DNA of 63,791 nucleotides, counting the filler. It is 4 parts of 4 records of this genome, joined end to end, with 100 filler letters (N's around TTAATTAATTAA, not from the genome) between each part and the next. Parts side by side here need not be neighbours in the genome. Positions count along the whole stretch, not along the records: positions 1 to 19,373 come from SRR31147125_12191; 3 more parts are not named here. One strand, written 5' to 3'. A program made the position numbers and the translations under genes. Positions 1 to 17,994 of this stretch are shown piece by piece; positions within the stretch are counted from its first letter, which is position 1, and every line of letters begins with the position of its first letter. The notes beneath the pieces were generated by a model. That model worked only from the letters and a program-made list of their open reading frames with translations, was not told the DNA's origin and made no database searches.

Positions 1-627
1 TTTTTTCGAAAAATAGTTGATAATATAATATTACTGGGTCGGTACGAATTGTTGAATGGTATTTTGGTTACTCCAAACCAGTTTTCCAGTATAAAAGAAT
101 ATAAACAGATTTGTGAGTTCGCTAAAAACAACGGTGCGAAATATGTTTTAATGAATCCGCTTTCTGAGTTTGGTAGAGGACAAAAATCAATTGATATAGC
201 GTTTACTAAGGAACAAATGATACAGCTAAGAGCTACAACAGAGGAGTACGCAAGCGAAAACTTTGAGATGATTTATATTAGATTTCCTAATGATAATAAA
301 CCACTAGAAGATTGTATCGCAGGAAAGATTAATTACGTTTTTGCTAATGGTGATGTAACAATTTGCCCATATATGGTTTTTGCAGCAAATAATAAAAAGA
401 GTATATATAACCCATCGGAATTTATTATTGGAAATATCCTAAAATCTGATATAACTTTAGAAGATAGTTTATTTGCTCATAATTTTAGTAAACGCACAGT
501 TAATGAGTTTTGTTTAGAATGCTCATATTCAGAGTGTAAACATGGATGCTTAGCAGCAAAAATATCAAAGGGTATGGATATATCAGGTTTTGATAGTGAG
601 TTATGCCCGCGATTAAATTTTCAATGA
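1..627 (+). CDS. Radical SAM protein with C-terminal SPASM domain (5'-truncated by window edge)
   Basis: Frame is open from base 1. SPASM pattern CIAG...ANGDVTICPY...IIGNI...CLECSYSECKHGC...C. The N-terminal CxxxCxxC motif lies outside the window. Confidence 0.85.
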   Translation, partial: FFRKIVDNIILLGRYELLNGILVTPNQFSSIKEYKQICEFAKNNGAKYVLMNPLSEFGRGQKSIDIAFTKEQMIQLRATTEEYASENFEMIYIRFPNDNKPLEDCIAGKINYVFANGDVTICPYMVFAANNKKSIYNPSEFIIGNILKSDITLEDSLFAHNFSKRTVNEFCLECSYSECKHGCLAAKISKGMDISGFDSELCPRLNFQ

Positions 628-639
628 TGGAGAAATGAT

Positions 640-1248
640 ATGGCGCTATTTATTACAGTTGAAGGTCCAAATGGGGCTGGAAAAACAACAACAGTTAATG
701 CATTAGAAAAAAAGTTAAGCTTGAATTGCAAAGTATATACTACTAAGGAGCCATCACCAACAGATTTTGGGAACTATGTAAAAAAAAATGAAGGAAGTTT
801 GACTAGCAAAGCCTATGCACATTTAATTGCAGCTGATAGGTGTTATCATGTCGAAAACTTTATTATGCCTGCATTGAACAATTATGATATAGTGTTGTGC
901 GATAGATACATTGAATCAAGTTTGGTTTTGCAACATTTTGATAATGTTGGACTAGACTATATATGGAAACTTAATGAAGATTTTGTAATTCCAGATTTAA
1001 GTATAATACTAATTTCTGATAGCAATATTTTAGAGAATAGATTGAAGCTACGAGATCAGAATAGTGATTTTGAGCTGAAGATTTCAAGAAAGAGAGAAAT
1101 TGAATTGTATTTGTTTGCTTATGATTATATTTTGAGTAAAGGATTTAATCCGATTTATTTGAATAGTGCTACTGAAGATATGGTAGATATGAATGTATCA
1201 AGAATTCTTAGCGAAATAGACAAATTAAGGGAGATTAGTTATGAATAG
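640..1248 (+). CDS. dTMP (thymidylate) kinase-family nucleotide kinase
   Basis: P-loop FITVEGPNGAGKTT, plus TKEP, AADR, DRYIESSL and PDL motifs of the Tmk family. Accessory context, so not necessarily the housekeeping tmk. Confidence 0.9.
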   Translation: MALFITVEGPNGAGKTTTVNALEKKLSLNCKVYTTKEPSPTDFGNYVKKNEGSLTSKAYAHLIAADRCYHVENFIMPALNNYDIVLCDRYIESSLVLQHFDNVGLDYIWKLNEDFVIPDLSIILISDSNILENRLKLRDQNSDFELKISRKREIELYLFAYDYILSKGFNPIYLNSATEDMVDMNVSRILSEIDKLREISYE

Positions 1249-2023
1249 CGAATTTAAAATACTTACTTTAAACATTGGTAATCCATCAATTCAACGAGCA
1301 GAGTTGCAAGTTAACTGGATAGAAAAGAGAAATGAAGATGTTTTTGTGTTAACAGAAACGAAAAATAGCAAAGGATGCAATTATATTGCTGATTATTTCA
1401 AGAATTATAATCATACTTTGCTTACAATGAATTCAGATGTATCTTATGACGTTTTTTTTCCAAAGTCGTCAACTGGTGATTTAGGAGTTATGATTATAAG
1501 TAAATTGCCAATAAAGAATAAATACTCAATACATGAGGAAAATAGTATTTTTTTCTCTAGGTTTGTTGGGTGTGATATCGAAATTGAATCTAGCGAATTC
1601 AGGGTGATTGGAATGTATGTTCCTTCAAGAGATCGCAGTGAAGAAAAAATAACTCGTAAAAAAACTTTCTGTATTGATTCTGCGAATCACATTAAGAAAT
1701 TAAATAATCAGTCCTGTATAATCTGTGGTGATTTAAATGTGCTAGAGAGAAATCATGTTCCTCATTACTCTACTTTTTTTGATTGGGAATATTCATTTTA
1801 TGAATTTTTTGAAAAAAACAATTTAATGGATAGCTTTAGATATTGTTATACTGATAAAAATAGGTATAGCTGGGTTGGGAGAACCAACGATGGCTATAGA
1901 TATGATTATATATTTGTTTCTAATAAAATCAAGGAGCAAATAAAATCATGCAACTACATTCACGAAACTAGACATAATAAATTAACGGATCATTCTGCAA
2001 TATATGCAAATATTCTTTTATAA
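1241..2023 (+). CDS. Endonuclease/exonuclease/phosphatase (EEP, ExoIII-like) family protein
   Basis: LTLNI, LTET, GDLN, RYDYIF and TDHSA catalytic motifs; overlaps the kinase gene by 8 nt. Confidence 0.9.
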   Translation: MNSEFKILTLNIGNPSIQRAELQVNWIEKRNEDVFVLTETKNSKGCNYIADYFKNYNHTLLTMNSDVSYDVFFPKSSTGDLGVMIISKLPIKNKYSIHEENSIFFSRFVGCDIEIESSEFRVIGMYVPSRDRSEEKITRKKTFCIDSANHIKKLNNQSCIICGDLNVLERNHVPHYSTFFDWEYSFYEFFEKNNLMDSFRYCYTDKNRYSWVGRTNDGYRYDYIFVSNKIKEQIKSCNYIHETRHNKLTDHSAIYANILL

Positions 2024-2148
2024 ACAATATATAGTAAACAGATTAATTTTTTAACAAACTTTTAAATACTTGTTGATTTATTAATGTATTTATATGAGTT
2101 AACAACTACTATTCAAAGTATAATTTAGTTATTTGTTTTGGAGAATAT

Positions 2149-3458
2149 ATGAAAAAAAGAACTTATAGACGATTATTAAAAAAAGAAATATCAATAATTG
2201 ATGTTTGGTCAATTGCAATTTTCATTGGTATTATTTTGTTCTGTTTTATTTATACACCAACATTAAATTTAGTAGAGAATAAGGTATATAATTTTTTATT
2301 TGATATGTATGAATCGCATATGACTATATATACTGTAATTGCTAATATTTTATTAACAGTGTTTTCGTTATCTGTATATTTCCTTATTAAAATAATTTAT
2401 TTAAATAAAAATAGGAATTATTTTTTTGTTGATGAGATGCAAGTAAAATATGTAGAGTTTTTGAAAGGTGCAAAAAGTATTTATATCTATTCAGGTGATT
2501 TAGGATTTTTAGTAGACAATGATGAACAGTACAGATTGATAAAAAGACTTGGGAAAAAAGCTATATCATTTTTGATGGCTTAGGTATTGTTGATAGAAAA
2601 GAAGAATTATATAACAGAATTCTCGAACTTAAGAAGTCAGGAGTTAATATTAGGAAGTATAATTCTAATGATGAAAAAATAGTTTTTCGAGGGCAAATAA
2701 GAGTTGATGCAAGAGGGAAAAAAGAATGCCTCTTTGTTGAAAAAAAGCAAAATAGTATTTATTACGAAATTAAAATAACTGATCAATTTATAACTAAAGT
2801 ATTGATAAGTAAATTTTGGAAGGCATTTAATAGAGGCGGCAATGCTTTTATTTCAACAATTTTATTTGATTTGGGAGGGGTGTATTTAAATGGAGATTTT
2901 ATTGAAGATTTCTTAGAATATTTAAAAAGCTATCATAATATTATCATTAAGCCATCAAGAAATGACAAGTTATTTCTTGATGTCGACCTCTCATTAGGTA
3001 AAATAACAATTGTTCAATGGATAGAGAAAAGAACAGGGATTAAGCTAAAGTTATCTCAAAAAGAAGAAGTGGAAAGGAAATGGTCTGAGATATGGACTCC
3101 CAATAATTCAATGTGTACACTTATTGAGATTTTAAAGAGAAATTATTTTGTTACTGCATCTGACAACATTGATAGAGAAAATGGGTTGATATATTTTGAG
3201 AAAGGTTATTTTAACTGTTTTCAAGATCCGATTTTTCTGTCATATCAGTTGGGTAAATGCAAGCCTGATCACGAGTTCTGGCTTCATATATTTGAAGAAT
3301 TGAATGTTTATCCACAGCAAGTATTATTAATAGATGACCATGAAGAAAATATAAATAAAGCTAGAAAAGAAGGAATGGAAACTATTAGATATTCTGTAAA
3401 GAATCAAAGTTTTGAATATTTGGAAGAACAGTTAAAGAGTAGGCTGATTTCAATATAG
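2149..3458 (+). CDS. Two-TM membrane protein fused to a HAD-family phosphatase (one gene split by an indel near 2555-2560)
   Basis: Two hydrophobic helices at the N-terminus. The frame of 2802..3458 stays open back to about 2560. HAD motifs FDLGGV, GKCKP and LLIDDHEEN. Confidence 0.75.
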
Positions 3459-3590
3459 TTTTCAATAGATTTAACATAAAAATTCTGATGTTTAACCATG
3501 CACGAATTTATATATTTTTAAAAGGAAGTTGTTAGCTTTGATATGTATATATTATATAATCTAATTCAGATGTAATGAAATGCAAGATAC

Positions 3591-3620
3591 AAAAGCCCAT
3601 ACCCTATGGTATGAACTTTT
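3591..3620 (-). terminator. Intrinsic terminator just downstream of the tRNA 3' fragment
   Basis: Minus strand AAAAGTTCATACC-ATAG-GGTATGGGCTTTT; stem closes with two G-U pairs and ends in a U-tract. Confidence 0.7.
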
Positions 3621-3625
3621 ATTTT

Positions 3626-3646
3626 TGGCGGAGAAGGAGGGATTCG
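3626..3646 (-). mobile_element. Prophage attachment core: 3' end of tRNA-Ser (21 nt fragment, not a full tRNA)
   Basis: Minus strand CGAATCCCTCCTTCTCCGCCA (T-arm half, acceptor stem, G discriminator, CCA), about 900 nt downstream of a tyrosine integrase. Confidence 0.85.
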
Positions 3647-3748
3647 TTCAAACCTGTTGTTCTGATGCTGAAATAGCCTAAAAATGGCTTTAAACAGGGC
3701 TTTTTGGCTATTATTAAACAAGATTAAAAAGCTTTCATGCAAAACTTG

Positions 3749-3768
3749 TGTGATAATAATGTGATAAT
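3749..3768. repeat. Putative integrase arm-binding direct repeats (TGTGATAAT x2)
   Basis: TGTGATAAT at 3749 and 3760 (11-bp period); TGTGATAA also at 4548-4555 in the integrase 3' end. Confidence 0.55.
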
Positions 3769-3770
3769 TT

Positions 3771-4526
3771 TTAAAAAGGATACTTATCCTCGGATCTAGT
3801 TATTTCGTAATTTATATTGTCTATATCGTAATTAACCGAAGAAGTAGCAGACCAATCATTTGTATTAAATAAAGCTAAACAACGCCCAGATTTATGTTGC
3901 GAACTATTATATTCAACACCATCATAACCTTCAGATTTAATAAATTCTGAAACTGCCTGTGATGGCATATATTCCGTTGTATGCAGACCATTTAAAGGGG
4001 AAGAATATAATAAATCAATATAATAAATAAAAGCATCTGTAAAAACATCTCCAAAGTAATAAGGCTTGCTTATAAAAGATATCAAAGAAATATCTCTTTT
4101 TATTTTACCTTCGCCTACAACACATGTGCTTGCAATTGTTGGCCGTGTTTCGGATAGAGCACATATTTCACTATCTGCTAAGTAAAGATAAGATATGCCT
4201 TTTGGATTTACTCTACCATCATTTGCAATATGTGAAGGAGGTGCACCAAGTTCTTTTGGAGAATATCCTTCAAATTTAGGATACAAATTAAAGTTATAAT
4301 GACCTGTTTTTTCGTTCGATATTCTTGCTCTATAATAGACTTTTTCTTTCGGTATTTCTTTTTTTAGTTCTGGAAGCAAATCTTTAAGAATGTCAAATGC
4401 TTCTTTTGTTCTACTTTTATCGGAACCAAAGAAAAATCTTCCACCTTGATTTATATAGTCTACTAAGCTATTTAAGTAAGAATAAGCTTCTAAACTAGCT
4501 TTACGATTTTCGTTAGAATTTTTCAT
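3771..4526 (-). CDS. RES-domain protein (NAD+-targeting toxin family)
   Basis: YYRAR, GRVNPKGISYLYLA, ALSE and GYDGVEYNSS give the R-E-S signature. Confidence 0.85.
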   Translation of the reverse strand: MKNSNENRKASLEAYSYLNSLVDYINQGGRFFFGSDKSRTKEAFDILKDLLPELKKEIPKEKVYYRARISNEKTGHYNFNLYPKFEGYSPKELGAPPSHIANDGRVNPKGISYLYLADSEICALSETRPTIASTCVVGEGKIKRDISLISFISKPYYFGDVFTDAFIYYIDLLYSSPLNGLHTTEYMPSQAVSEFIKSEGYDGVEYNSSQHKSGRCLALFNTNDWSATSSVNYDIDNINYEITRSEDKYPF

Positions 4527-4540
4527 ATATGTTCTCCAAA

Positions 4541-5686
4541 TTAAACCTGTGATAAAATATTATCCAACTTATCTATTGCAGATGCCTTTTGTTTGTCCTC
4601 TACATGAGTATATATCTTTGCTGTAATTTCAATATTTGAATGACCCATTAGCACGGATGCGGTTTTTAACTGGACACCGTTCTTTGCTAGTAGGCTACAA
4701 AAAGTATGTCTTAAAATATGGAATTTGCGAGGTTGGAGAGCTAAACTTATTTCAACTCTTTTCCACCTTGCTAATAGATGATTTGCTTGAATTAATCTAC
4801 AATGAATATTTGTAAACAGAAAATTATCTTTACTGAATAAAACACCTTTTTTCAAATGCTTTTGTTTTTCAAATGCAATATGCTTTTTTAAATTTGGCAG
4901 TAGTGTTTTTGATACTGGTATATCACGAATACTGGATTTGTTTTTGCATGGTCTTATAATTGCTTTTCTTTTTGAACCATCACGATCAATTACTTTAACG
5001 ATATTTACACTTCTACGGACATGAATCATATCATCGTGAATATCAGAGTGCTTTAATGCTAATATTTCACCTTGGCGCATTCCTGTAGCTAAAGCAAATT
5101 GGAATATAAACAAAGAAATATCATCGTTAAATGCTTTATTTAAAATGGATACTTCGTTATCATCTAAAAACAACTTTTCATCATCCAATTCGACAATTTG
5201 TTCATCCTTTGGCTTCTTTGTATTTAAACATGGATTTTTTATTAAAATATCTTCTTTAACACAATATAAAAAGAAATTATTTAGCAGCACATGGACACGA
5301 TCCGCTTTAGAAGGTGTTAAGGGATTATATAATTTTTGCACATCTAAAGATTTAATACTGACTAAAGGATTATTTGCAAAAGGTGCGGTTTTGATATAGT
5401 TTCTATAGATGCTTTCATATCTGTTAAAAGAACTATCTGCAACACTAGGTTTTTTGACCTCGAACAACCATTCATTAAAAAATTGATTAAAACTTAGTTT
5501 ATCAAAATCGATATTCAAACCGCGACTAATACCAGCAATATATTCATCTCGCTTTTGCTCAGCTTCTTTTTTGCTAGATCCATAGAATGTTTTACGTTGG
5601 CGTTTACCGTCTAGATCCGTTCCAATTGTTGCTGTAACTCTGAAATACTTTTTACCATTGATTTCAACATTCGTTTTCTTAGCCAT
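4541..5686 (-). CDS. int: Phage tyrosine integrase
   Basis: TGMRQGE, HILRHTF, LMGHS and IYTH catalytic motifs; N-terminal arm-binding domain. Confidence 0.95.
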   Translation of the reverse strand: MAKKTNVEINGKKYFRVTATIGTDLDGKRQRKTFYGSSKKEAEQKRDEYIAGISRGLNIDFDKLSFNQFFNEWLFEVKKPSVADSSFNRYESIYRNYIKTAPFANNPLVSIKSLDVQKLYNPLTPSKADRVHVLLNNFFLYCVKEDILIKNPCLNTKKPKDEQIVELDDEKLFLDDNEVSILNKAFNDDISLFIFQFALATGMRQGEILALKHSDIHDDMIHVRRSVNIVKVIDRDGSKRKAIIRPCKNKSSIRDIPVSKTLLPNLKKHIAFEKQKHLKKGVLFSKDNFLFTNIHCRLIQANHLLARWKRVEISLALQPRKFHILRHTFCSLLAKNGVQLKTASVLMGHSNIEITAKIYTHVEDKQKASAIDKLDNILSQV

Positions 5687-5727
5687 TATAATAACCTCAT
5701 AAATAGTTAATGGTGAATTTAATAGTT

Positions 5728-6504
5728 TTAAATATACTGTTTTTCATAGCAGTAAGATTTTAATTTTTGTTTAAAATCTAGAAATTTGTCTTTAAGCTCT
5801 AAATTTGAGGATATAAGATCTCTTGCACTAGCTTCATTACAAACTAAAACTTCATTGACCGATAAACAAAAACTTTGTACCATTTGTTCTGATATAAATT
5901 CATGTACCTCTGAATAACTATCGAATTCTCCATTAGCATATTTAAGTAAAATACCATTAAACCAATTTCTTATTTCAGAATCCATACAACTATGGATACT
6001 ATTCATTAAATCATATAAAGAATTAGATCTTATCCAAAAAGCATTTTCTGTTGAAATTTCAAATGTCCCAGATGCATGTGCCATGTCATTACGCAAATTC
6101 ACTAAAGTGACAATCTTTTTAATTTTACTATCATCTAAATTAATCAAATTCAGAATCTTTGGAAGTTCTTTTTCAGGAACTATACTATATTCGAAGACTG
6201 ATTCAATATTAAAAAAGTCGATTGTTTTATTTTTGTATGGTTTAGCGAACACAACAACGTCACTATATCTTGATTCTTTTATTTGACTTATTTTCCATAC
6301 AGTGCTGTAAATATAAGTCATAAACAGGAGATGTAATCCGAAATAAGCAAATTGATATTGTTCATGTATGTAATTAACAGCTATTGAATTTGTTATATTT
6401 CTAATGTATGAAGAGATATCCCTTTTATCTTTAGCATCAATAGGCAAAAATTCTAAAACTTCCTTTAGATATGGTACTTCTGAGTAATCAATAACATCTA
6501 TCAT
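5728..6504 (-). CDS. Hypothetical protein with HEPN-like RxxxxH motif
   Basis: 258 aa, helical-looking, contains LRNDMAH; starts 8 nt after the R-M stop codon. Confidence 0.6.
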   Translation of the reverse strand: MIDVIDYSEVPYLKEVLEFLPIDAKDKRDISSYIRNITNSIAVNYIHEQYQFAYFGLHLLFMTYIYSTVWKISQIKESRYSDVVVFAKPYKNKTIDFFNIESVFEYSIVPEKELPKILNLINLDDSKIKKIVTLVNLRNDMAHASGTFEISTENAFWIRSNSLYDLMNSIHSCMDSEIRNWFNGILLKYANGEFDSYSEVHEFISEQMVQSFCLSVNEVLVCNEASARDLISSNLELKDKFLDFKQKLKSYCYEKQYI

Positions 6505-6512
6505 ATGTCCAC

Positions 6513-9401
6513 CTAAAGTTCTTTCAACATATATTTCATTTTCTCACTAAACATATGTATGAGTTCTTTTGACGATTTAATATGAGATTGTTCGACTGAT
6601 ATTTCATCCAAAATATTACGCTGTTCTTCTAAGGAAGGTACAACAATTGAATAATTTTTTATGTAGTCTATATCAATTCTCTGTTGTCCAGCAGTTCCAG
6701 TCATGAAATTTTTTCCTTGGCGCAAAAAATCCCAAGAGTTAATATGATAATAAATCCATTCTGGATAAACTATTTTTGTATTTGCTCTTATTACGATAAA
6801 TTCAGTTGACCCAAAACCAATTCCATTTCTTAAATTTACTGCAATTCCCGCTTTGCCATTTTCAAAACAAGGAGTTATCTTTGCTAGTAAGACATCATTA
6901 TCTTTGAAATAAGTATAGCCTTGCAATACTTCTCCAATTAACTTTTCTTTAACTGCAGAAAAAGATTTACTGTGAGAATTTATATCACTCATAGGAACGA
7001 AAGAAACTATGGTATCACTTGGTAGTTCTCTAACCTCAGTTTTAGGTGGTCTGATGTTTGAAATAGAATCCAATGTCTTTATTTCTCCATTTACATTCCT
7101 AGAAATAATAGGTTTGTAATTATTAACTATATTCCTTGCGTTATTAATTATGGACTCATAACTTTCTAGTTCCTTAACAATATCTTTTTGAATATCAATT
7201 GGGGGTATGGGAATTTCCAGCATACCAAAGTTCCTTTTGGATATTTCTTTAAAAGTAGCGCCACTTGCTAAATTCATCATTTCTTCTTTTCTACATACTA
7301 AAGCATAAGCTAAATATTCAGGCAATACAGCAGATTGATTTTTTATTATTATATTTTTGAATCCTTGGTTTGTAGCTAAATCAGTTTTTGCAATCCCTAC
7401 TCTACCAATAGTTGCTCTTGATGAAACAATAACTGCATTTTTTGGAAGGAGCTTTGCACTTGAATTCTTAAGCCCTTTTTCTGAGATTTTTCTATTAGAA
7501 TCAACTATTTTAGATACATAATTCTCTGGGGATAAATCAGCAAGTGTTATCCAATTTATATTTCCATTCCAATAATCTAAATTAGCACTACTAGGAGTAC
7601 CTCCTGAGGAAATAGAAAAGTAATCTTCATTACCCAAGCTTATTAATGGGAATTCTGTTATTCTTGTTTCTTGCTCTTTGTATCTACTACCTACTAGAAC
7701 AAAAGAGTTATTAATTACTTTTTTTAATGGAATAACTTCAAAACCAACTTTCAACATTTCATCCATTTGTTCACTATCTAATTTGCGAAACTCTTCGTAT
7801 TTCGTTAAGTCGCTAGGAGTATCAAGCTTACGTCGATGATTATCAAGAGTATACCCATCACTCTTCACATCAAAATACCAATAATCTCTACGCTTTTTCT
7901 TAAAAGGAATTTTTTGATTTATTTTTGTTGCAAAAATAATATTTGTTTTAACGCCAGTGTATGGAAGAAAAACACCTTGTGGTAATGAAATTATACTCTG
8001 TAGTTGTGAATTTGCTAAAAGATACTCACGAGTTTTAGTTAGATCCTTTCGGAACAAAAATCCCTCTGGTACAACTAGTGCCATCCTTCCATTTTCGGAA
8101 AGCGCATCAATTGCTTTCATACAATGTTGAACGCAAATACTATCACCATTTGTAGTTGGGAAATCATATAAATTACCGTGATTAGTTTTTTGAGAATAAG
8201 GCATATTAGCAAGAACCACATCATATTCTCCGTTTACTGGATTAGCTAAGCTATCCTTCATATGTATATTACTATGTCCATCACCAGCCAATATCATATT
8301 CATTTTTGTTATTCTAGCAGTATTGGTTATTTCATTGCCATAGATTGTTTCTTCTCGTAGCATTTTCTCATTTCGTTGTGTTCTAGACATATTATTGTGT
8401 ATGTGTCTAAATGATTCTATTAAGAATCCACCAGTTCCGCAAAATGGATCATATATTTTTTCTCCAATTTGAGGATTAACTAGACGAATCATTGTTTTTA
8501 CTATATGGCGAGGTGTAAAATACTCGCCAAGATCATTTTTCGATGCAGTAGAAGCTTTAAGAAAGTACTCAAATGCATCCCCCTTAACATCACTATCAAC
8601 ATCGGTAAGTGTAAGTGGATCAAGCTTATCAATTATTTCTTTCAATATCGAGTTATCCCTGATAGTCAATGGTGTGAATATTTCTGTTTTGTATAGCTTA
8701 TTAAGCTTTTGATAAACCATTGAATTTATATACTCAATTCTAGTTGTTGGAGGTATATTTTTTATAGTATCCCAGCTACATGAAGTATCAAAGTCAGATA
8801 GAATACCAGTTTCTCGCTTAATTTCTTCGCTTTCACTAATAAGCTTTAAAAAAAGTATATTTGCAAATTCACTAAAACGCTCAATTCCTGCTCTCAGTCC
8901 ATCTCCCCTTAGCATATTGTTTGCGTCATCGAAAATTTTAATTAATTCTTTACGATCGTACTGTACTTTTTGACTAATGGTGTTTACTTCTGGTGTTGCT
9001 AAAAACTTTAGAGCTAAAGCTTCTCTAATAAATTCATCTATATCTTCACCGTTTAGCTTTGGTGTTGTGTTTCCAAAAGTGTGAAATGCTTTACAAAAAA
9101 CGCCATCCGTTGCATATACTAAAGGGGCATTAAGAGTCTTTGCATATGACAACCCTTGCTCTAACGCTTTGTCAATACGCTCACCTTTTTTCTTAGCCTC
9201 AATAACTATTAATGGCGTATCACTATCTTTAGAGTACAATACATAGTCTGGTCTTTTTCCCTCAAGCCTTTTTTGCTCATCTTTAGTTCTAGGGCGTTCA
9301 CAAAAAACATTTTGCTCTTTACCTTTAAAATTCCACCCTAGATTTTTCAAATTTGTATCTATGAGATGACGTGTATCGCATTCAAGTGGAAATGTATTCA
9401 T
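6513..9401 (-). CDS. Single-chain restriction-modification enzyme (HsdR_N-type nuclease + N6-adenine MTase + HsdS-type specificity domains; type IIG-like)
   Basis: PD-(D/E)xK RPDYVL...IEAKK; GEYFTPR; DPFCGTGGF (motif I); NMPY (motif IV); two TRD-like blocks (GGTPS...NQGF and GSTEF...GTAGQQRI). Confidence 0.9.
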   Translation of the reverse strand: MNTFPLECDTRHLIDTNLKNLGWNFKGKEQNVFCERPRTKDEQKRLEGKRPDYVLYSKDSDTPLIVIEAKKKGERIDKALEQGLSYAKTLNAPLVYATDGVFCKAFHTFGNTTPKLNGEDIDEFIREALALKFLATPEVNTISQKVQYDRKELIKIFDDANNMLRGDGLRAGIERFSEFANILFLKLISESEEIKRETGILSDFDTSCSWDTIKNIPPTTRIEYINSMVYQKLNKLYKTEIFTPLTIRDNSILKEIIDKLDPLTLTDVDSDVKGDAFEYFLKASTASKNDLGEYFTPRHIVKTMIRLVNPQIGEKIYDPFCGTGGFLIESFRHIHNNMSRTQRNEKMLREETIYGNEITNTARITKMNMILAGDGHSNIHMKDSLANPVNGEYDVVLANMPYSQKTNHGNLYDFPTTNGDSICVQHCMKAIDALSENGRMALVVPEGFLFRKDLTKTREYLLANSQLQSIISLPQGVFLPYTGVKTNIIFATKINQKIPFKKKRRDYWYFDVKSDGYTLDNHRRKLDTPSDLTKYEEFRKLDSEQMDEMLKVGFEVIPLKKVINNSFVLVGSRYKEQETRITEFPLISLGNEDYFSISSGGTPSSANLDYWNGNINWITLADLSPENYVSKIVDSNRKISEKGLKNSSAKLLPKNAVIVSSRATIGRVGIAKTDLATNQGFKNIIIKNQSAVLPEYLAYALVCRKEEMMNLASGATFKEISKRNFGMLEIPIPPIDIQKDIVKELESYESIINNARNIVNNYKPIISRNVNGEIKTLDSISNIRPPKTEVRELPSDTIVSFVPMSDINSHSKSFSAVKEKLIGEVLQGYTYFKDNDVLLAKITPCFENGKAGIAVNLRNGIGFGSTEFIVIRANTKIVYPEWIYYHINSWDFLRQGKNFMTGTAGQQRIDIDYIKNYSIVVPSLEEQRNILDEISVEQSHIKSSKELIHMFSEKMKYMLKEL

Positions 9402-9466
9402 TGTTTTTTCTCCTTATATATGAATTGTTTGAAATTCTTCAATTTTTCTCGTATAAGTAAAAATAC

Positions 9467-10081
9467 TTACCTCACATCACTTTGGAAAGCAATTGCTTTA
9501 CCAAGTATTTTTACGCTCTCTTCCCCTGATTTAAATATCAAAGGTTTATATGTTGGGTTTTCAGCAACTAGTGTAATACTTTCATCATGAATGTATACAC
9601 GTTTTAATGTAGCTTCATCTTCTATTAGAACTGCCGCTATCTCACCATCATTAACAATTGATTGTTTTCTTATAAATACAATATCTCCATCATTGATTCT
9701 AGCATTAATCATACTATCCCCTTGTACAGTTAGACAAAAATCAGCTTTTATATTTGCGCCTAACTCAACATAATACTCAAAGTTTTCTTCTGCTAATAAA
9801 GGTTCACCAGCTGCTATTGTACCTAGCATAGGTATTTTTTGAGTTTCAATTTGATAGATATTTGTTGGTTGTGATAATTCTTTTTCCCATCCCATAAGGT
9901 AAGCAGGAGTAGTTTGAAGCACTTTTGCAAGTGGCTCCAATATTGTAATAGGTAAATTTTCTATTTCGTCACTCTCATACCTATATATAGTTGCTCTGTT
10001 TTTATCGAGTTTTTTTGCCAAGTCATCGACTGATAAATCAAGAACTCTACGTCTATTTCTAATTCTATCACCAATAGTCAT
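9467..10081 (-). CDS. Phage repressor CI (XRE HTH + S24 LexA-type peptidase)
   Basis: N-terminal HTH, AG cleavage site (IAAGEP), GDSM Ser and ATLK Lys. Start at MTIGDRI with GAGAGG RBS. Confidence 0.92.
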   Translation of the reverse strand: MTIGDRIRNRRRVLDLSVDDLAKKLDKNRATIYRYESDEIENLPITILEPLAKVLQTTPAYLMGWEKELSQPTNIYQIETQKIPMLGTIAAGEPLLAEENFEYYVELGANIKADFCLTVQGDSMINARINDGDIVFIRKQSIVNDGEIAAVLIEDEATLKRVYIHDESITLVAENPTYKPLIFKSGEESVKILGKAIAFQSDVR

Positions 10082-10151
10082 ATATTTACACCTCTCTTGT
10101 TGCATATTATAACCTTAAATTCGCAAATGCGCAACAATAAACTACAAAAAA

Positions 10152-10228
10152 GTTGCATATGATGCAATTATGGTCTTGACATCTAAAAAGTGTAGTGCTA
10201 TCATTGAGTTAGTCGCATTGTATGCGAC
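10152..10228. promoter_or_regulatory. cI/cro switch: sigmaA-type rightward promoter flanked by 17-bp operator palindromes
   Basis: TTGACA(10176)-17 nt-TATCAT(10199) with extended-10 TG; operators GTTGCAT-ATG-ATGCAAT (10152) and GTCGCAT-TGT-ATGCGAC (10212). Confidence 0.75.
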
Positions 10229-10246
10229 GTGATGAAGGAGAATTTT

Positions 10247-10489
10247 ATGTTAAATACTAATAAGTTAAAAGGCAAAATTGTTGAAAAAGGTTTTAGCGTA
10301 GAAGAGTTAGCAAATAAAATGGGTATTAATAAATCCACTCTATATCGAAAGATTAATAACGAGTCATACAATCTTTCAATTAAAGAAGCTGACAAGATTG
10401 TTGAAACACTTGATTTGAACTTAGAAGAAGCAAATGCTATTTTTTTAGCCAGTTCGTCGCATGAAATGCGAATATTATATGTTTTTTAG
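10247..10489 (+). CDS. Cro-like HTH regulator
   Basis: Divergent from cI; HTH SVEELANKMGINKSTLYRKIN; AAGGAG RBS. Confidence 0.85.
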   Translation: MLNTNKLKGKIVEKGFSVEELANKMGINKSTLYRKINNESYNLSIKEADKIVETLDLNLEEANAIFLASSSHEMRILYVF

Positions 10490-10563
10490 AATATATAATA
10501 AGTGCGGTTGGATAGGGAAGTAAAACAAATGGCTAATGATAAAAAACCAAGGGAGAAAAAGTT

Positions 10564-10761
10564 ATGAGAAACAAAATATTTAAAAAGCGAATTGATGAGT
10601 TAGAAAAAAGAGTTTCCGCCCTTGAAAAAGAGCGGAAAGGATTAAACAATACATTTAAACTAGTTTGTAGAAATTTGAATATCCCCAATACTAATACCAA
10701 TGATCTGATCAAAGAACACAACAAGCTCTTGAAATCTAATATTATTCTGACTAGAGTTTAG
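10564..10761 (+). CDS. Small phage hypothetical protein (overlaps an opposite-strand gene)
   Basis: GGGAG RBS; coiled-coil start KRIDELEKRVSALE; 3' half overlaps 10660..11046(-). Confidence 0.4.
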   Translation: MRNKIFKKRIDELEKRVSALEKERKGLNNTFKLVCRNLNIPNTNTNDLIKEHNKLLKSNIILTRV

Positions 10762-11046
10762 TATTTGAACATTATTAAGAACCATGTATCCATCGTTTTC
10801 AGATGTAGGGTTCTCAATTTCAAACTCTTCGGAGTAAGCTTTTAAAACGCTGTAGGCAGTTAGTGACAATAAATTTTCATCAGTGAGTTCATCTTCTGCA
10901 GTATCATCAGTAACGTAAGAAGAAAAATCACCTTTAACAAGTCCTGCTGCAGTAACCAGTGTAATTGTACTTCCTTTAAAAGCTTCAAGTTTTGTTGCAT
11001 TGCTTAAACCTAAAATCATCAATTTTTTAAAAGATGGTTTAGACAT
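10660..11046 (-). CDS. Hypothetical protein, weakly GvpU-like; inverted cassette
   Basis: AAAGGAG RBS and own promoter motif; ITLVTAAGLVKG and DQIIGISIG resemble the GvpU family by eye. Confidence 0.6.
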   Translation of the reverse strand: MSKPSFKKLMILGLSNATKLEAFKGSTITLVTAAGLVKGDFSSYVTDDTAEDELTDENLLSLTAYSVLKAYSEEFEIENPTSENDGYMVLNNVQILNSSQNNIRFQELVVFFDQIIGISIGDIQISTN

Positions 11047-11149
11047 ATTTGCACTCTCCTTTCTTTTTTAATAGTTATTACCAAAATATAGTGTAACAGA
11101 TTGGGGAGTGCAGGGTCAAATAGAAGGAAAACCCAAAGGAGAAAAACAA

Positions 11150-11431
11150 ATGGCTGAATTAAAAAACAAATATATTACATCATATAAATTTGATGCTAAA
11201 ACTATGGCAGATGAAATTCCAGAAGAATTTGAAGCGGCAGCGAAATTGGTCGCAAAGATGAATGAAGGAGAATGGAGCACATTTAAAAGTGTTGTAGACA
11301 GAGTCTTTGAAGATATGGTCTCCAATTTTAAAAGTGACTTAGAAATCGGAGACCATGAACCAATCGTTAACCTAATCAAATCTGATTATATGTTTGACAC
11401 ACGAAGGCGTAAAAAAATAAATTCAGATTAA
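11150..11431 (+). CDS. Phage hypothetical protein
   Basis: AAAGGAG RBS before MAELKNK; in the early operon. Confidence 0.65.
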   Translation: MAELKNKYITSYKFDAKTMADEIPEEFEAAAKLVAKMNEGEWSTFKSVVDRVFEDMVSNFKSDLEIGDHEPIVNLIKSDYMFDTRRRKKINSD

Positions 11432-11643
11432 CCTCTAACAACTTGTATGTGGGATGGATGAACGGTATGAAGTTTACCTTCGTGAGTGATTTTATGACAA
11501 TGCACAAAATCATATTTTTCTGGATGATGCCATGAGTCGAGCTTATAGGCGATAAATTCATCAATTGGTTTGTCATCTATTTGTGAATCATAATCATCAA
11601 GCTTAGTCCATGTACCTAGCAAATTTACATATACTTGTTCCAT
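11428..11643 (-). CDS. Hypothetical protein; inverted cassette
   Basis: AAAGGAGG RBS and the same 17-bp upstream motif as 10660..11046. Confidence 0.65.
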   Translation of the reverse strand: MEQVYVNLLGTWTKLDDYDSQIDDKPIDEFIAYKLDSWHHPEKYDFVHCHKITHEGKLHTVHPSHIQVVRG

Positions 11644-11760
11644 TTAACACCCTCCTTTCTGAAATAGTATTTTCTGTCAAATATAGTGTAACAGAATTGA
11701 GGGTGCTAAACAACTATTCAAGGAGAGTGATATAAATTTTAAAGAAAGGGGGAAAGTGAT

Positions 11761-11964
11761 TTGGATAGCCCAAAAAAAGAAAAAATGCAAAGCATGTTTG
11801 ATAATCTCTCTGCACAGGCTCAAGCAAAAGTTATAGGAGATATGGCTGAAATTGAAGCCAAGGAAAAAAAGCAGATTGAAAGATTTACACATGCAATGGA
11901 AGCAGCTGGAGCTGATCCAGCTATGGTTGAAAAAACTGTAGAGTGTTACAAAACCGCATCTTAA
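11761..11964 (+). CDS. Phage hypothetical protein
   Basis: Purine-rich RBS region; early operon. Confidence 0.55.
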   Translation: MDSPKKEKMQSMFDNLSAQAQAKVIGDMAEIEAKEKKQIERFTHAMEAAGADPAMVEKTVECYKTAS

Positions 11965-11988
11965 TAGGTGCGGTTAGAAAGGAAAACC

Positions 11989-12258
11989 ATGAATATATTA
12001 TACATTCTTTATATAGCATCAATAGTTTTATCCGCGATTATGTGCATTGCTGGACTAGGTGCTATTGCTATAGAAGTTAAAATGAAAAAAGCCAAACAAG
12101 GCATAAAAGCCAAATTATTTAACCCAACTATTGTTCTGATAATACAATTTACTATATTGCTATTGATACCATTGATAAATTTATCGCTTGGATTTTTGGC
12201 TTTGTATTCGGAAAAGTTCAAAGAAGCAGCGATTGATGAAGCGTTGAATGGTAAGTAA
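11989..12258 (+). CDS. Small two-TM phage membrane protein
   Basis: AAAGGA RBS before MNILYIL; two hydrophobic segments. Confidence 0.6.
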   Translation: MNILYILYIASIVLSAIMCIAGLGAIAIEVKMKKAKQGIKAKLFNPTIVLIIQFTILLLIPLINLSLGFLALYSEKFKEAAIDEALNGK

Positions 12259-12302
12259 GTATACCGCAATTTCTAAATCGGTGCGGTTAGAAAGGTGATT
12301 GA

Positions 12303-12500
12303 ATGAAATTATATCATATTTATAACGGATGGGTTGGTTGTTCTGCTGTAAGAGTGTGCGTAATTGCCAAAAGTGAGCAGAGAGCAAAAGAACTAGCTTT
12401 AGAGAAGTTTGAAAAAAAAGAACCCATTGAAAAATTGGCTGTTGAATTATTGTGTGATGATGTATCGATGGAATGGGCGAGCGAAGAATTTGATGATTAA
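12303..12500 (+). CDS. Phage hypothetical protein
   Basis: AAAGGTG RBS; early operon. Confidence 0.6.
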   Translation: MKLYHIYNGWVGCSAVRVCVIAKSEQRAKELALEKFEKKEPIEKLAVELLCDDVSMEWASEEFDD

Positions 12501-12578
12501 TGAAAAACCCAAAAAGCAAAATGATTGATAAAAGAGAAATAAAAAGGTATCGAAATTATTAAACAAGGAGAAAAGATT

Positions 12579-12857
12579 ATGAAAGCAACTGGAATAGTAA
12601 GAAAAATAGATAGTTTAGGAAGGATTGTTCTGCCTAAAGAAACAAGAGATATTTTAAACATGAACGTTGGAGATCCTTTAGAAATCTACACAGATGAAAA
12701 TAGCATAATGCTTAAAAAGTATAAAGCTGGTTGTATCTTCTGTAATGAATGCAGTAATCTTGTAACTTTTAAAGGTCAAAAGATATGTGAAAAGTGTTTG
12801 ACTGATATAGAAGCTGTGAATATGTTTGAGGGGAAAAAACAAAAGAATTTGTATTAA
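12579..12857 (+). CDS. AbrB/SpoVT-family transition-state regulator
   Basis: MKATGIVRKIDSLGRIVLPKE with C-terminal CxxC...CxxC. Confidence 0.9.
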   Translation: MKATGIVRKIDSLGRIVLPKETRDILNMNVGDPLEIYTDENSIMLKKYKAGCIFCNECSNLVTFKGQKICEKCLTDIEAVNMFEGKKQKNLY

Positions 12858-12874
12858 AGATTTGAGGTTAAAGG

Positions 12875-13066
12875 ATGAAGATATCTAAAAGTAAAGCAAA
12901 AGGTATTTTGGAATTTGCAGTATCTACGTTACCAGAAAAAAAGGATGAAGCAAACAAATTGCTTGAAGCAGCAATACTCACAGCTATTTCAAGCTTGAAT
13001 AAAAGTATACAGATTGAAAAAGCTATTGATTCTTTTTTCGAAAAAATAAGCCGAGGTAAAGAATGA
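12875..13066 (+). CDS. Phage hypothetical protein
   Basis: Operon position; stop overlaps the next start (ATGA). Confidence 0.5.
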   Translation: MKISKSKAKGILEFAVSTLPEKKDEANKLLEAAILTAISSLNKSIQIEKAIDSFFEKISRGKE

Positions 13067-13230
13067 AACTATATCAGATATACAGCAAAGACGGATTACC
13101 AGTTACACAATTCAAAAATTCAGCTTTAGCAGCAAAGTTTGTAGGGTTAACGCTTGGATCATTCTATTGTGCAGTTACTAGGGGGAGCACAACCAGGAGC
13201 GGATACTCAGTAGCAAAAGTTGAAATATAA
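13063..13230 (+). CDS. 55-aa phage protein, NUMOD1/HTH-like (absent from ORF track)
   Basis: MKLYQIYSKDGLPVTQFKNSALAAKFVGLTLGSFYCAV...; GAGG RBS; ATGA coupling. Confidence 0.55.
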   Translation: MKLYQIYSKDGLPVTQFKNSALAAKFVGLTLGSFYCAVTRGSTTRSGYSVAKVEI

Positions 13231-13382
13231 CTGTTCAGATACATTCTTATAAAACGGAATGTATCTAATCGGTTATACAGCCATGATAATTGATTAAAAA
13301 CCGCAATATCATCAAATTTACTCTAATGGATAAATGATTCATCATCTAGCGTTTTGCGGTTGCGCTGGATGATGAGATAAAG

Positions 13383-13691
13383 GTGAAGCGAAAGGAACAT
13401 AAAGCGATGGCTATCTATGCAATTGAAGATATTACAAAAATATTCACTCATGACGGCAGGTTCGAATTGATATCTGTTAGTGACTATATGGAGCGCAATC
13501 CATCTGTTGGACGTAGTCGAGTAATGGACATGATTAAACGTGGTGTTCTGGAAATAGATAGAACAGAAGGTGGGGGCAAAATCTTAATCAAAGTTGAACG
13601 TATGCAATTAACACAAGAAGTACTGAATAATCAAAAAAAGATTATGGATATGCTGAATGCAATATCTGAAAGGTTTGGTATTGAATATTGA
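13383..13691 (+). CDS. Putative DNA-binding (excisionase-like HTH) protein
   Basis: ISVSDYMERNPSVGRSRVMDMIKRG resembles a MerR/Xis winged HTH. Confidence 0.5.
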   Translation: MKRKEHKAMAIYAIEDITKIFTHDGRFELISVSDYMERNPSVGRSRVMDMIKRGVLEIDRTEGGGKILIKVERMQLTQEVLNNQKKIMDMLNAISERFGIEY

Positions 13692-13951
13692 ATAGAAAAG
13701 AATTATTAAAAGCACTAAACATTCTGGATAAGCAATTAAAAGAGAATGTAAAAAACTATTCTCATATGAGCTATTTTGAAAACATACCAGAACCAAAACA
13801 AATATTTTTTAGGAAGAGACAGATCCTTTTTATAGTAACCACAAATAAAAAGCTAATCCAGTTTAATATAACAGATCTAAACAAAGCCGAGATTGCAAAT
13901 TTAATAGTTTCAAAACTTGATGGAGTTGGTAGATCTAAAAAAGGTGCTTGA
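13688..13951 (+). CDS. Phage hypothetical protein
   Basis: Overlap-coupled ORF in early operon. Confidence 0.5.
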   Translation: MNRKELLKALNILDKQLKENVKNYSHMSYFENIPEPKQIFFRKRQILFIVTTNKKLIQFNITDLNKAEIANLIVSKLDGVGRSKKGA

Positions 13952-14528
13952 TATGTACAGGCCTGTTATTGAGGTAAAAGGCGAAACTATCTTTGTTTTG
14001 CAAGCTATGAATACAAAGCTACATAAAACGGTTGTGCTGTTAGAACGTAAAGATGATTTGAAACTAAAATATATAGTCCTGGTGAAGTTTGACTTTGATA
14101 AAAAGACTGGTGAGAAACCGCAATATAGAAATAGCCTTGATAAAGCTATTACAACATATTATGAGCTTACGACCAATCAAGCAATGCTTCAAGGTATCTT
14201 TGATAATTTAAAAACATTGCCTGTGCCAGTAGAACCGGTTGTTTTTTCAGAAAAAGAGATTAAGGAGATTGAAGATATGAAAACACCAAAGGAAAAAGTA
14301 ATTGAAAAACTAATGAAATACGAATATGAAGTAATTGAAATTATGTCTTTTCATATTGGATATATGCAGTTTAAAAAATTAGATGCAACGGATGAACGCT
14401 CTAATCTGCCTGTATTATACATTGATGAAGATGGCGATGATTGCGAAGTAAAAGAAATCATTGAATTGTTGGAGCAGTACAATAATTTTTACGAAATGCA
14501 GGAAGGTAAAAAACTTAGGGTTAGTTAG
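13917..14528 (+). CDS. Phage hypothetical protein
   Basis: 203-codon ORF in operon; exact start uncertain. Confidence 0.6.
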   Translation: MMELVDLKKVLDMYRPVIEVKGETIFVLQAMNTKLHKTVVLLERKDDLKLKYIVLVKFDFDKKTGEKPQYRNSLDKAITTYYELTTNQAMLQGIFDNLKTLPVPVEPVVFSEKEIKEIEDMKTPKEKVIEKLMKYEYEVIEIMSFHIGYMQFKKLDATDERSNLPVLYIDEDGDDCEVKEIIELLEQYNNFYEMQEGKKLRVS

Positions 14529-14529
14529 T

Positions 14530-14886
14530 ATGGATGTTTATGCTCACTATGAATTTGATGAAGTCTTGCGATCATTACAATTTATGACTGATAGTCAATT
14601 TATATTAAAGTGGTGTGGGGATCTTGCACGAGAGTTAAAGCAACATACAAATTTTAACCCTCAATGGAATCACTTGAAGTGTATGCAGAGGGTAGAAAGG
14701 TCTAGGAGGTTTAGGAATATGACTTTGATTGAAAGAAAAATTGAAGGTGAAAAGTATTTTATCAGTCTAATTAGCAAGCAAATAAAAGAAGCAAAAAACC
14801 AAAGAAAAAAGAACAGGCTTTTAGAGATTCAAAAGGTATCAAAGGAGTATTTGGAAGATCTTAAAAGTTTGGCGGGTGTGCTCTAG
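14530..14886 (+). CDS. Phage hypothetical protein
   Basis: Start at MDVYAHY directly after the previous stop. Confidence 0.5.
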   Translation: MDVYAHYEFDEVLRSLQFMTDSQFILKWCGDLARELKQHTNFNPQWNHLKCMQRVERSRRFRNMTLIERKIEGEKYFISLISKQIKEAKNQRKKNRLLEIQKVSKEYLEDLKSLAGVL

Positions 14887-15268
14887 GGAGTAGCAGTTGT
14901 ATTTTGACCGGTCGGAGTTGGTTTTGATTTATCCATAACAGGATTAAGTAAAAAATTAGTTATTATCCAAAGTAATAATGAAACAATGATTGCTGTAAAA
15001 ATTGGTATAATCCAATTTTTCCTGTTCTCTCTCTTTATAGTATAAAGATAATTTTCACCTTTTGGAGTAGATTTAAGAAAAACAGTACTACCACTACCAT
15101 TAGGGTTTTGAACTACTTTAGTAATCAAATAGCCTTGGGTTACTAAAAAATGTGTTTTCTCAATAGTGCTTCCTTTGAATTTTTTTGCAAAGAAGCAGAG
15201 TTATATACTAATGGATTTCTGTAAATAAGCTTCAAAAGCTTCATAGATTTGTAGTGCAAGTATTCCAT
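14883..15268 (-). CDS. Inverted gene: small N-terminal domain plus C-terminal TM helix (frameshifted near 15180)
   Basis: AGGAG RBS and ATG at 15268 (MEYLHYKSMKLL...); continues into ORF 14883..15128 with TM WIIPIFTAIIVSLLLWII. Confidence 0.55.
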
Positions 15269-15367
15269 TTAAATCTCCTTAAAAGAATATGTAATGATTA
15301 TACTGCAATGATTAAAATATGGAAAGTGTTATTAAAAAAATAATGAGAATAAAGAAAGGATATAAAA

Positions 15368-15985: not shown

Positions 15986-16159
15986 AAGTTTAAATGGGAT
16001 ATGTAATAAAAAGCGACGGAAGTTATTATACAGGATTGAGTGGACTTAGCAAATGGCATACGGATGTAAAATTTGCAAAAGTATACTATTGTAATCATCG
16101 GGCAGGATGTGCAAGAGCGAGACTAGGATGCGGATTTGTAGTGAGTTTGGAGGAACAAG

Positions 16160-16531: not shown

Positions 16532-16565
16532 TAATTTGAAAATAAAACAAATGGAGGTTTGAAAA

Positions 16566-16754: not shown

Positions 16755-16780
16755 CATCTATATATAGAAGGAAACTTAAG

Positions 16781-17992: not shown

Positions 17993-17994
17993 GG

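Follow-up and report, generated by a model that had tools for sequence, protein, structure and literature searches.

A widespread candidate module that couples a radical SAM/SPASM enzyme to a Tmk-family kinase, an ExoIII-like enzyme and interchangeable partner genes

We analysed a 63,791-nucleotide stretch of DNA (the window), which joins at least four contigs end to end, and focused on the group of genes at its left edge. Five open reading frames (ORFs) in the same orientation occupy positions 1-3458: 1-627, which is open at its 5' end, 640-1248, 1241-2023, 2149-2583 and 2802-3458. These encode, in order, a radical S-adenosylmethionine (SAM) enzyme with a SPASM-type C-terminus, a kinase of the Tmk family, an ExoIII-like endonuclease/exonuclease/phosphatase (EEP) enzyme and, across the last two ORFs, a membrane protein with a HAD phosphatase domain. 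An earlier interpretation made from the letters alone (the sequence-only reading) had described four co-oriented genes at this position; the co-orientation stands, but the fourth gene is broken into two ORFs in the window. The tight coupling that it reported for the first three genes is exact: 12 nt separate the radical SAM stop codon from the kinase start, and the kinase and EEP genes overlap by 8 nt. A GGAG-type ribosome site lies ahead of the kinase ATG.

The first gene (1..627, + strand) encodes a radical SAM/SPASM enzyme, of which the window contains 208 C-terminal codons. The start of the window removes ~150 5' codons, including the CxxxCxxC motif. A contig of the same sequencing run (X1) reaches 243 nt further upstream, and the N-terminal half with CxxxCxxC is still absent for this copy. 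The fragment is 56% identical to the full 360-aa orthologue of locus L001, and full-length orthologues from the low-GC loci (339-364 aa) combine CxxxCxxC with an N-terminal C-[YF]-F-R motif and the SPASM Cys pattern. SPASM domains are marked by seven Cys residues in the arrangement CX9-15GX4C ... CX2CX5CX3C ... C, which the window protein follows in the form C..G....C / CxxCx4CxxxC / C, with the elements C..G....C, CLECSYSECKHGC and ELCP. The SPASM domain named by the sequence-only reading is thus visible in the cysteines, although the profile scores remain below their cutoffs (PF13186, 17.6 bits versus 21.5; TIGR04085, 23.3 bits versus 27). The radical SAM relatives of L012, L019 and L033 lack part of the CxxC block. 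With its radical SAM gene truncated at the window edge, this copy represents the group poorly, and complete copies such as that of L018 are better suited to experiments.

No curated NCBIfam model scored above its cutoff with the radical SAM enzyme, the best being MftC at 92-99 bits against a cutoff of 265. The viperin family NF038283 reached 57-65 bits against a cutoff of 180 with the orthologues of L001, L018 and L045, and only over the N-terminal core, while PADLOC pVip matches were confined to residues 31-186. Because the score is far below the cutoff and the enzyme carries a SPASM domain, viperin identity is rejected, as had already been argued from the SPASM domain. An AlphaFold model of the L001 orthologue (predicted local distance difference test score, pLDDT, 87.7) has SuiB (E 1e-14, TM-score 0.66), SkfB, BlsE, anSME and PqqE as its nearest folds. 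The fold neighbours include the nucleoside- or sugar-acting enzymes BlsE and DesII, and viperin fits the core only. Neither the alignment nor the L001 model contains a PqqD-like domain or recognition element (RRE) of the kind that binds ribosomally synthesized and post-translationally modified peptides (RiPPs), since only ~30 residues lie ahead of CxxxCxxC.

The second gene (640..1248, + strand) encodes a dTMP-kinase-like P-loop kinase that exceeds the dTMP kinase cutoff (TIGR00041, 110.8 bits versus 83.25; PF02223, 107 bits). All five genomes searched contain a second Tmk match, with PF02223 scores of 181, 179, 138, 101 and 67 bits compared with 90-117 bits for the cassette copy, so that the second protein scores higher in three genomes, similarly in one and lower in one. 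Four high-scoring second Tmks (L097, L098, L099 and L101) were taken as housekeeping proteins. The window kinase scores 118-198 bits to other cassette kinases and 38-60 bits to these four, and in a phylogenetic tree 27 of the 28 cassette kinases, together with four further actinomycete paralogues, split from the four housekeeping copies with 95% SH-aLRT support, the Prevotella cassette kinase being unresolved. These comparisons place the cassette kinase in a separate, cassette-specific Tmk subfamily, apparently not orthologous to the housekeeping tmk, and its earlier description as a Tmk paralogue therefore survives: the grouping with housekeeping Tmk that would have spoken against it was not seen in this tree. 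The kinase also matches the PADLOC profiles PDC-M51B (E 6e-11, 40 bits) and VakA (E 2.5e-7). Two of the carrier genomes that recur below, G001 (L081/L093) and G004 (L083/L094), are both Bacillota. In a further genome, G005, the cassette has no kinase and the best Tmk match in the genome reaches only 33 bits.

The third gene (1241..2023, + strand) encodes the ExoIII-like EEP enzyme (PF03372, 41 bits). Its score lies below the exodeoxyribonuclease III cutoff (TIGR00633, 79.9 bits versus 99.05), and the nearest solved proteins are Xth/ExoIII, followed by the LINE-1 endonuclease and APE1. Residues N11, E39, D164/N166, D222 and D250/H251, which we take to fill the metal-binding and catalytic roles of ExoIII, are invariant in two sets of 21 and 23 EEP sequences. 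A word-indexed search returned 887 relatives at E <= 0.001, the best 120 of which are 49-65% identical. Within the EEP gene, positions 1862-1863 read AG in the window and GA in an independently assembled X1 contig (depth ~5), a difference that may be an error or a strain variant.

The fourth gene (2149..3458, + strand) encodes a membrane protein with two N-terminal transmembrane (TM) helices, a PLD-like middle domain and a C-terminal HAD-IA domain. It is split between frames 1 and 3 at a run of six A residues (2553-2558). Each orthologue (450-466 aa) is encoded by one uninterrupted ORF and can be aligned through the split, and an X1 contig assembled independently, other than the one that reaches further upstream, has one extra A in this run, which leaves the gene intact. 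Given this extra A, the break is an assembly error or a variant. The sequence-only reading had called the product a 2TM-HAD phosphatase and was right about both ends of the protein, but it missed the middle domain. The HAD assignment exceeds its cutoff (TIGR01509, 48.1 bits versus 29.4; PF00702, 35.9 bits), and in an AlphaFold2 model of the L018 orthologue (pLDDT 93.2) the protein is made up of a pair of long TM helices, a middle domain of alpha/beta type and a HAD domain that matches 3cnh (Z 21.1) and YihX (Z 18.3). A wide structure search with the 450-aa model matched HAD proteins only and barely probed the PLD-like and TM parts. When residues 98-243 were submitted to an Atlas structure search, PLDc_2, NgoFVII and TrmB-regulator folds were matched with TM-scores of 0.74-0.77. 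The middle domain features the motifs GGD[LI]DFL and RGQ[IL]K and near-invariant F, D, F, Q and G residues; it lacks the HKD motif HxK(x)4D and has no conserved His. An exhaustive profile search identified 123 cluster representatives related to this domain, compared with two from a word-based search. A HAD domain is present in 28 of the 77 relatives scanned, and SLATT_5, PLDc_2, DUF4062 and Metallophos domains occur in single members; the SLATT_5 match (1.8e-5) was seen in that one member and not in the window protein.

To follow these genes in other genomes, the window proteins were used as BLAST queries and 80 loci were fetched via EEP relatives, with one genome per species. The radical SAM gene adjoins the EEP gene in 52 of the 80 loci; all three core genes are present in 45 and the radical SAM and EEP genes without the kinase in seven. 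The linkage expected under the sequence-only reading is therefore conserved among homologues. The other 28 loci include 13 of one shared type, several contigs cut at the gene and some degraded copies. In the 13 loci, mostly from Actinophytocola, the EEP gene stands with DUF1697 and P-type ATPase genes instead. The radical SAM and EEP pair is carried by members of six bacterial phyla (Bacillota, Bacteroidota, Actinomycetota, Patescibacteria, Bipolaricaulota and, through a metagenome-assembled genome (MAG), Gemmatimonadales) and by one archaeon, a Methanoregula MAG, and gene order within the module varies. Complete cassettes include the L018 type, with radical SAM, EEP, 2TM-PLD-HAD and kinase genes, and an actinomycete type with radical SAM, kinase, EEP and NUDIX genes.

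The distribution is patchy at lower ranks. At E <= 1e-40, the EEP profile found only G001 itself among 151 sampled genomes of its family; at E <= 1e-30, it found 24 of 151 sampled genomes of the family of G003, a count that includes Actinophytocola-type EEP genes without radical SAM and two unpublished genomes (G247 and G289). One Lachnospiraceae MAG shares near-identical kinases with two MAGs of Oscillospiraceae, and in the tree a copy from Coriobacteriaceae falls within those of Bacillota. No match to the module was found in 50,697 phage records. One IMG/VR copy lies in a prophage, between integrase and holin/lysin-like genes (ORFs read by eye), and one copy is on a Streptomyces linear plasmid. 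The module is sporadic and has been transferred between lineages.

Two side observations concern the EEP gene family. In a set of actinomycete loci, mostly from Actinophytocola (L022-L029, L031, L032, L034 and L041), EEP proteins of 35-39% identity have no radical SAM or kinase gene alongside, and the accompanying block consists of DUF1697, an unassigned ~300-aa protein and a heavy-metal P-type ATPase. Three Amycolatopsis genomes each have two EEP loci on different contigs (L052/L056, L053/L057 and L036/L058); no radical SAM gene was detected at L053.

The gene that accompanies the core differs between loci. The 2TM-PLD-HAD protein is found in the window, L017, L018, L019 and L033, and TM and PLD-like parts without HAD in L001, L002 and L004, where they are split, with a weaker match to a 250-aa ORF in L015. 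A NUDIX partner is found in a 25-locus actinomycete cluster (representative L061 scanned) and in L030, and as a NUDIX-GNAT fusion in L033. Further partners are a CYTH protein in L021 (L046 belongs to the same cluster), a deoxynucleoside kinase (dNK) in L037, a 717-aa HD/dGTPase-like protein in L009-L011 and, according to the RefSeq annotation, a MazG-like protein on the Streptomyces plasmid. Other small membrane proteins belong to no family (clusters c16, c23 and c28). Every identifiable partner is a nucleotide kinase or phosphohydrolase. The sequence-only reading mentions a similar block in Actinobacteria, with NUDIX or glycosyltransferase partners; the NUDIX partners are borne out, but none of the loci showed a glycosyltransferase. 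That non-homologous phosphohydrolases swap at one position is, in our view, the best indication of a phosphorylated nucleotide as the module's substrate, and a thymidine-type deoxynucleotide is suggested by the Tmk family of the kinase together with the dNK at one locus.

To investigate the genomic context of the module, 125 neighbouring proteins within four genes on each side of 20 low-GC loci were scanned. Strong PADLOC matches to known defence genes were present within four genes at six of the 20 loci, an uncontrolled count that is suggestive only. In L018, a single unidentified 484-aa gene separates the cassette from Gabija GajA (702 bits) and GajB (464 bits) just upstream. L001, to which the window copy is most closely related, has a Hachiman HamB helicase (194 bits), L013 has ThsA (199 bits), L037 a type IIG enzyme (771 bits) and L005 a type II methylase (294 bits). 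In L038, from the Methanoregula MAG, a ThsB-like TIR gene (59 bits) at 7216-8142 is followed, with tight spacing, by a 144-aa TM gene in the same interval that abuts the cassette; this pair could be an additional accessory module or a small defence system of its own. The 125 neighbours also include two phage-integrase family proteins, one transposase and one TraO. An IetA match of a 645-aa neighbour in L016 was not counted as defence, because a Peptidase_M41 (FtsH-type) protein is among the neighbours and the match may be a generic AAA one.

No PADLOC model fits the module itself. Within it, only the kinase (PDC-M51B and VakA) and the radical SAM core (pVip) were matched; the EEP enzyme, the membrane proteins and the C-terminal half of the radical SAM enzyme matched nothing. 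As to the enrichment near defence systems expected by the sequence-only reading, the known defence genes near six loci suggest a possible link to defence.

No curated family and no paper describing the gene set was found, in literature searches that covered neither subscription journals nor supplements. Its closest described counterpart is thmABC of Photorhabdus asymbiotica, whose radical SAM enzyme, nucleoside kinase (AbmG-like) and nucleoside triphosphatase suffice for the production of 4'-thiothymidine in Escherichia coli (Son et al., mBio 2025, PMC12691670). The triphosphatase alone is reported to confer resistance, the product is a secreted nucleoside antibiotic, its triphosphate is described in the discussion as efficiently incorporated by polymerases without 3'-5' proofreading, and relatives of ThmA are reported in gamma-proteobacteria only (PMC12691670). 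Because that triphosphate enters DNA where proofreading is absent, an ExoIII-like self-protection enzyme would be reasonable in the present module. The two systems resemble each other as small, mobile groups that combine a radical SAM enzyme with a nucleoside or nucleotide kinase and whose flanks differ between species, and thmABC has a thymidine-analogue product. The thmABC-type arrangement, with an adjacent nucleotide triphosphatase, is approached by relatives with NUDIX, MazG, CYTH or HD proteins beside the core; the window has a HAD phosphatase instead, and the EEP gene is always added. We set the module beside thmABC by description only, and the relation would be one of analogy, not of membership.

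A candidate ThmA-like protein from an Escherichia plasmid was rejected. It came from a tblastn search of plasmids with the radical SAM enzyme, which returned 155 records, five of them from Escherichia and one of these examined; this 478-aa enzyme shares the core only (32% identity over 118 residues), has a long N-terminal extension and a Cys-rich C-terminal region, and looks by eye like a peptide-maturase type. A dNK protein had no tblastn match in Escherichia.

Other known systems resemble the module in part. Viperins (vertebrate RSAD2 with CMPK2; pVip with a kinase) likewise link a nucleotide-acting radical SAM enzyme to a kinase of the nucleoside monophosphate (NMP) kinase superfamily, which includes Tmk, but the viperin profile matches residues 33-145 only, and the enzyme here has a SPASM C-terminus and the C-[YF]-F-R motif. 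We know of no EEP partner of viperins. SPASM/twitch enzymes (SuiB, SkfB, anSME, PqqE and MftC; BlsE and DesII) share the fold and the auxiliary-cluster Cys pattern; the present enzyme differs in having no peptide-recognition domain, in belonging to no curated family and in having nucleotide enzymes rather than peptide or cofactor genes as partners. The candidate PADLOC system PDC-M51 shares the kinase, which matches PDC-M51B, whereas the radical SAM enzyme, the EEP enzyme and the membrane protein match no other PDC-M51 component. For bacterial viperins, a preprint gives 12% with a nucleotide kinase within three genes (bioRxiv 10.1101/2023.09.13.557418). The module is an undescribed variant on the theme of a radical SAM-made nucleotide analogue, a kinase and a protective hydrolase; as judged from its predicted proteins, its distinctive features are the SPASM-type enzyme, the Tmk subfamily dedicated to it and the ExoIII-like partner, which is obligatory.

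We consider it about an even chance (a probability of roughly 0.5) that these genes form a self-contained mobile module for the synthesis of a non-canonical (deoxy)nucleotide, probably of thymidine type, and for the protection of its carrier against that product. Within this reading, we give about equal weight to an intracellular role against phage and to a secreted nucleoside that poisons rival bacteria. In such a pathway, the radical SAM/SPASM enzyme would remodel the sugar or base of a pyrimidine nucleotide, and the dedicated Tmk-subfamily kinase would feed or phosphorylate the monophosphate. The ExoIII-like EEP enzyme could trim the analogue off DNA 3' ends or take off a phosphate, and the interchangeable fourth gene would hydrolyse the phosphorylated analogue, a task that may fall to NUDIX, MazG, CYTH or HD proteins in relatives. 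The membrane-anchored PLD-like and HAD phosphatase of the window would act at the membrane, in self-protection or in nucleoside release. What the comparison itself shows is the conserved linkage, the separate kinase subfamily, intact catalytic motifs, swappable hydrolase partners, sporadic spread and transfer between lineages; the enzymatic steps are our proposal. The sequence-only reading had proposed a similar route, with a nucleotide modified by the radical SAM enzyme, phosphorylated by the Tmk paralogue and detoxified by the EEP and HAD proteins; the linkage, the kinase subfamily and the partner genes agree with that route, while its defence function is only suggested. The logic of a secreted antibiotic with self-resistance has been proven experimentally for thmABC and offers an alternative by analogy.

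Enzymes of the radical SAM superfamily that rebuild nucleotides have already given two important products, the antiviral chain terminators of viperin and the antibiotic 4'-thiothymidine. The module described here is far more widespread, in gut Clostridia, Bacteroidales, actinomycetes, Patescibacteria and a methanogen, and its radical SAM enzyme appears to be of a different lineage. A nucleoside drug lead, an antiviral metabolite or an immune signal could come from it, and the EEP and hydrolase genes could reveal how a self-made DNA-directed poison is tolerated.

Several observations weigh against a nucleotide-making module. Peptides or cofactors are the usual substrates of SPASM-type enzymes, most of the 125 neighbours are ordinary housekeeping proteins (GlmS, ABC permeases, haem and amino-acid enzymes), and in Pseudonocardiaceae a LysR-type regulator, typical of metabolism, stands beside the operon. 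In G001 and G004 the cassette kinase is the sole TIGR00041/PF02223 match, which would suit a housekeeping role; either the housekeeping Tmk of these genomes has diverged greatly or the cassette kinase doubles in that role. In the window copy itself, the N-terminal, catalytic part of the radical SAM enzyme is missing and the fourth gene is frameshifted. The comparison with thmABC is also imperfect: thmABC has neither an EEP gene nor a membrane protein, and ThmB is described as a distant homologue of the nucleoside kinase AbmG and not as Tmk-like.

A bolder form of the nucleotide-analogue pathway, which we put forward tentatively, is a new type of antiviral immunity in which the SPASM radical SAM enzyme and the Tmk paralogue turn a thymidine nucleotide into a poison of DNA replication, the ExoIII-like exonuclease proofreads host DNA and a swappable pyrophosphatase or membrane phosphatase limits the dose. 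If true, such a system would parallel viperin while acting on DNA, and would bring its own self-immunity. In a variant, the radical SAM enzyme would make a nucleotide signal that is sensed by the PLD-like membrane proteins.

We regard a different explanation as unlikely: anti-phage signalling, in which the radical SAM, kinase and EEP core senses infection and makes a nucleotide-derived signal, and the variable genes are effectors that kill or arrest the cell, either as 2TM/PLD-like or other TM proteins or as NUDIX, HD or CYTH enzymes that deplete nucleotides. Signalling defence systems are usually built in this way, from an invariant core and exchangeable TM or hydrolase modules, and the PLD-like domain lacks a catalytic His, as do ligand-binding PLD folds such as TrmB regulators. 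The single SLATT_5 and DUF4062 members among the 77 membrane-protein relatives point the same way, as do the Gabija, Hachiman, Thoeris, TIR-like and type IIG genes within four genes at six of the 20 loci and the ThsB-like TIR and TM genes directly ahead of the L038 cassette. Against this, the PADLOC models leave the EEP enzyme, the membrane proteins and the C-terminal radical SAM half unmatched, no sensor domain is evident, actinobacterial forms have NUDIX only and no membrane effector, and adjacent kinases and pyrophosphatases resemble a pathway more than a sensor with effectors.

A role in DNA repair or nucleotide-pool sanitation is likewise unlikely. The radical SAM enzyme would here reverse a lesion in DNA or in a nucleotide, in the manner of spore photoproduct lyase, the ExoIII-like enzyme would process ends, and the kinase with NUDIX, MazG or HAD proteins would recycle or clean thymidine nucleotides. 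Such a role would agree with the closeness of the EEP enzyme to the repair nucleases Xth and APE1, with NUDIX and MazG as classic house-cleaning enzymes, with the lone Tmk matches of G001 and G004, with the LysR regulator and with the presence of the cassette in small-genome Patescibacteria. A repair function would sit poorly, however, with so sporadic a module (one of 151 genomes in the G001 family) that has moved between families and is found in a prophage and on a plasmid; the membrane-anchored partners fit poorly as well, and a second Tmk match was present in all five genomes searched.

Replacement of a DNA base by the logic of phage T4 is very improbable. Phage hypermodification pathways combine an NTP pyrophosphatase, an NMP-modifying enzyme, an NMP kinase and a nuclease, and the module's enzyme set mirrors this: a pyrophosphatase would yield the deoxynucleoside monophosphate, the radical SAM enzyme would modify it, the kinase would re-phosphorylate it and the EEP enzyme would remove unmodified DNA, so that carrier DNA would contain modified thymidine. 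Phage records gave no match (0 of 50,697) and IMG/VR only one locus, no dedicated polymerase or restriction partner is present, and a genome-rewriting module is unlikely to hop so freely between phyla. Least probable of all is an ordinary RiPP or cofactor maturase operon with the nucleotide genes as bystanders: the best profile and fold matches are MftC, SuiB, SkfB, anSME and PqqE, but the scores fall far under family cutoffs (MftC, 92-99 versus 265 bits), the RRE/PqqD-like N-terminal domain is absent, the clustered neighbours revealed neither a conserved small ORF nor a cofactor gene, and the partners conserved across phyla are the kinase and the EEP enzyme.

The layout of the window limits what can be said of its context. 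Its contigs are chained by N44-TTAATTAATTAA-N44 linkers, an all-frame stop spacer, at 19374-19473, 36532-36631 and 58114-58213, so any feature spanning these positions is an artefact and statements on context are valid for the first 19.4-kb piece only. The joined pieces have GC contents of 0.315, 0.392, 0.422 and 0.495, and the contrast with DNA beyond 19.4 kb is therefore one between contigs. The AT-richness remarked on earlier for the cassette genes is real (GC 0.284 over 1-3458), but their own contig is likewise AT-rich (0.315). A blastn search of plasmids with window positions 1-3760 gave no match.

A terminator-like hairpin with a T-rich tail lies 3' of the fourth gene (3598..3613, + strand). 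It is the sole such site in 1-3800; shuffled sequences give a mean of 0.8, so that it is weak evidence and not significant alone. Next to it, 20 nt on the - strand (3626..3645), ending in CCA, correspond to a tRNA-Ser 3' end and match, with one mismatch, the tRNA-Ser 3' ends of two related Bacillota genomes (L109 and L110). The sequence-only reading had placed a tRNA-Ser integration site beside the operon. The gene itself is missing, as ARAGORN and Rfam found no tRNA gene in the whole window, but the 20-nt remnant does stand beside an integrase-bearing element. It is unique within the window, where no second copy or other attachment-site (att) repeat was found, and is an att-like scar, not a gene, that divides the cassette from the element on its right.

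This element is prophage-like and integrative and occupies 3771-19341, where the contig stops before the far boundary. It begins with a RES-domain gene (3771-4526), a tyrosine integrase (4541-5686), a weakly supported HEPN-like gene (5728-6504) and a gene for a 962-aa fusion of an N6-methylase, two specificity domains and HSDR_N (6513-9401). A CI-type repressor with the GDSM S24 peptidase motif (9467-10105), a Cro-like helix-turn-helix gene (10229-10489) and an HNH gene (19045-19341) were read from the translation. Contig C31 of genome G007 (L111-L113) has the tRNA-Ser 3'-end 19-mer three times within 3.9 kb; ARAGORN finds no tRNA gene around copies 1 and 3, the locus of copy 2 overlaps the first, and the three copies look like tandem att scars.

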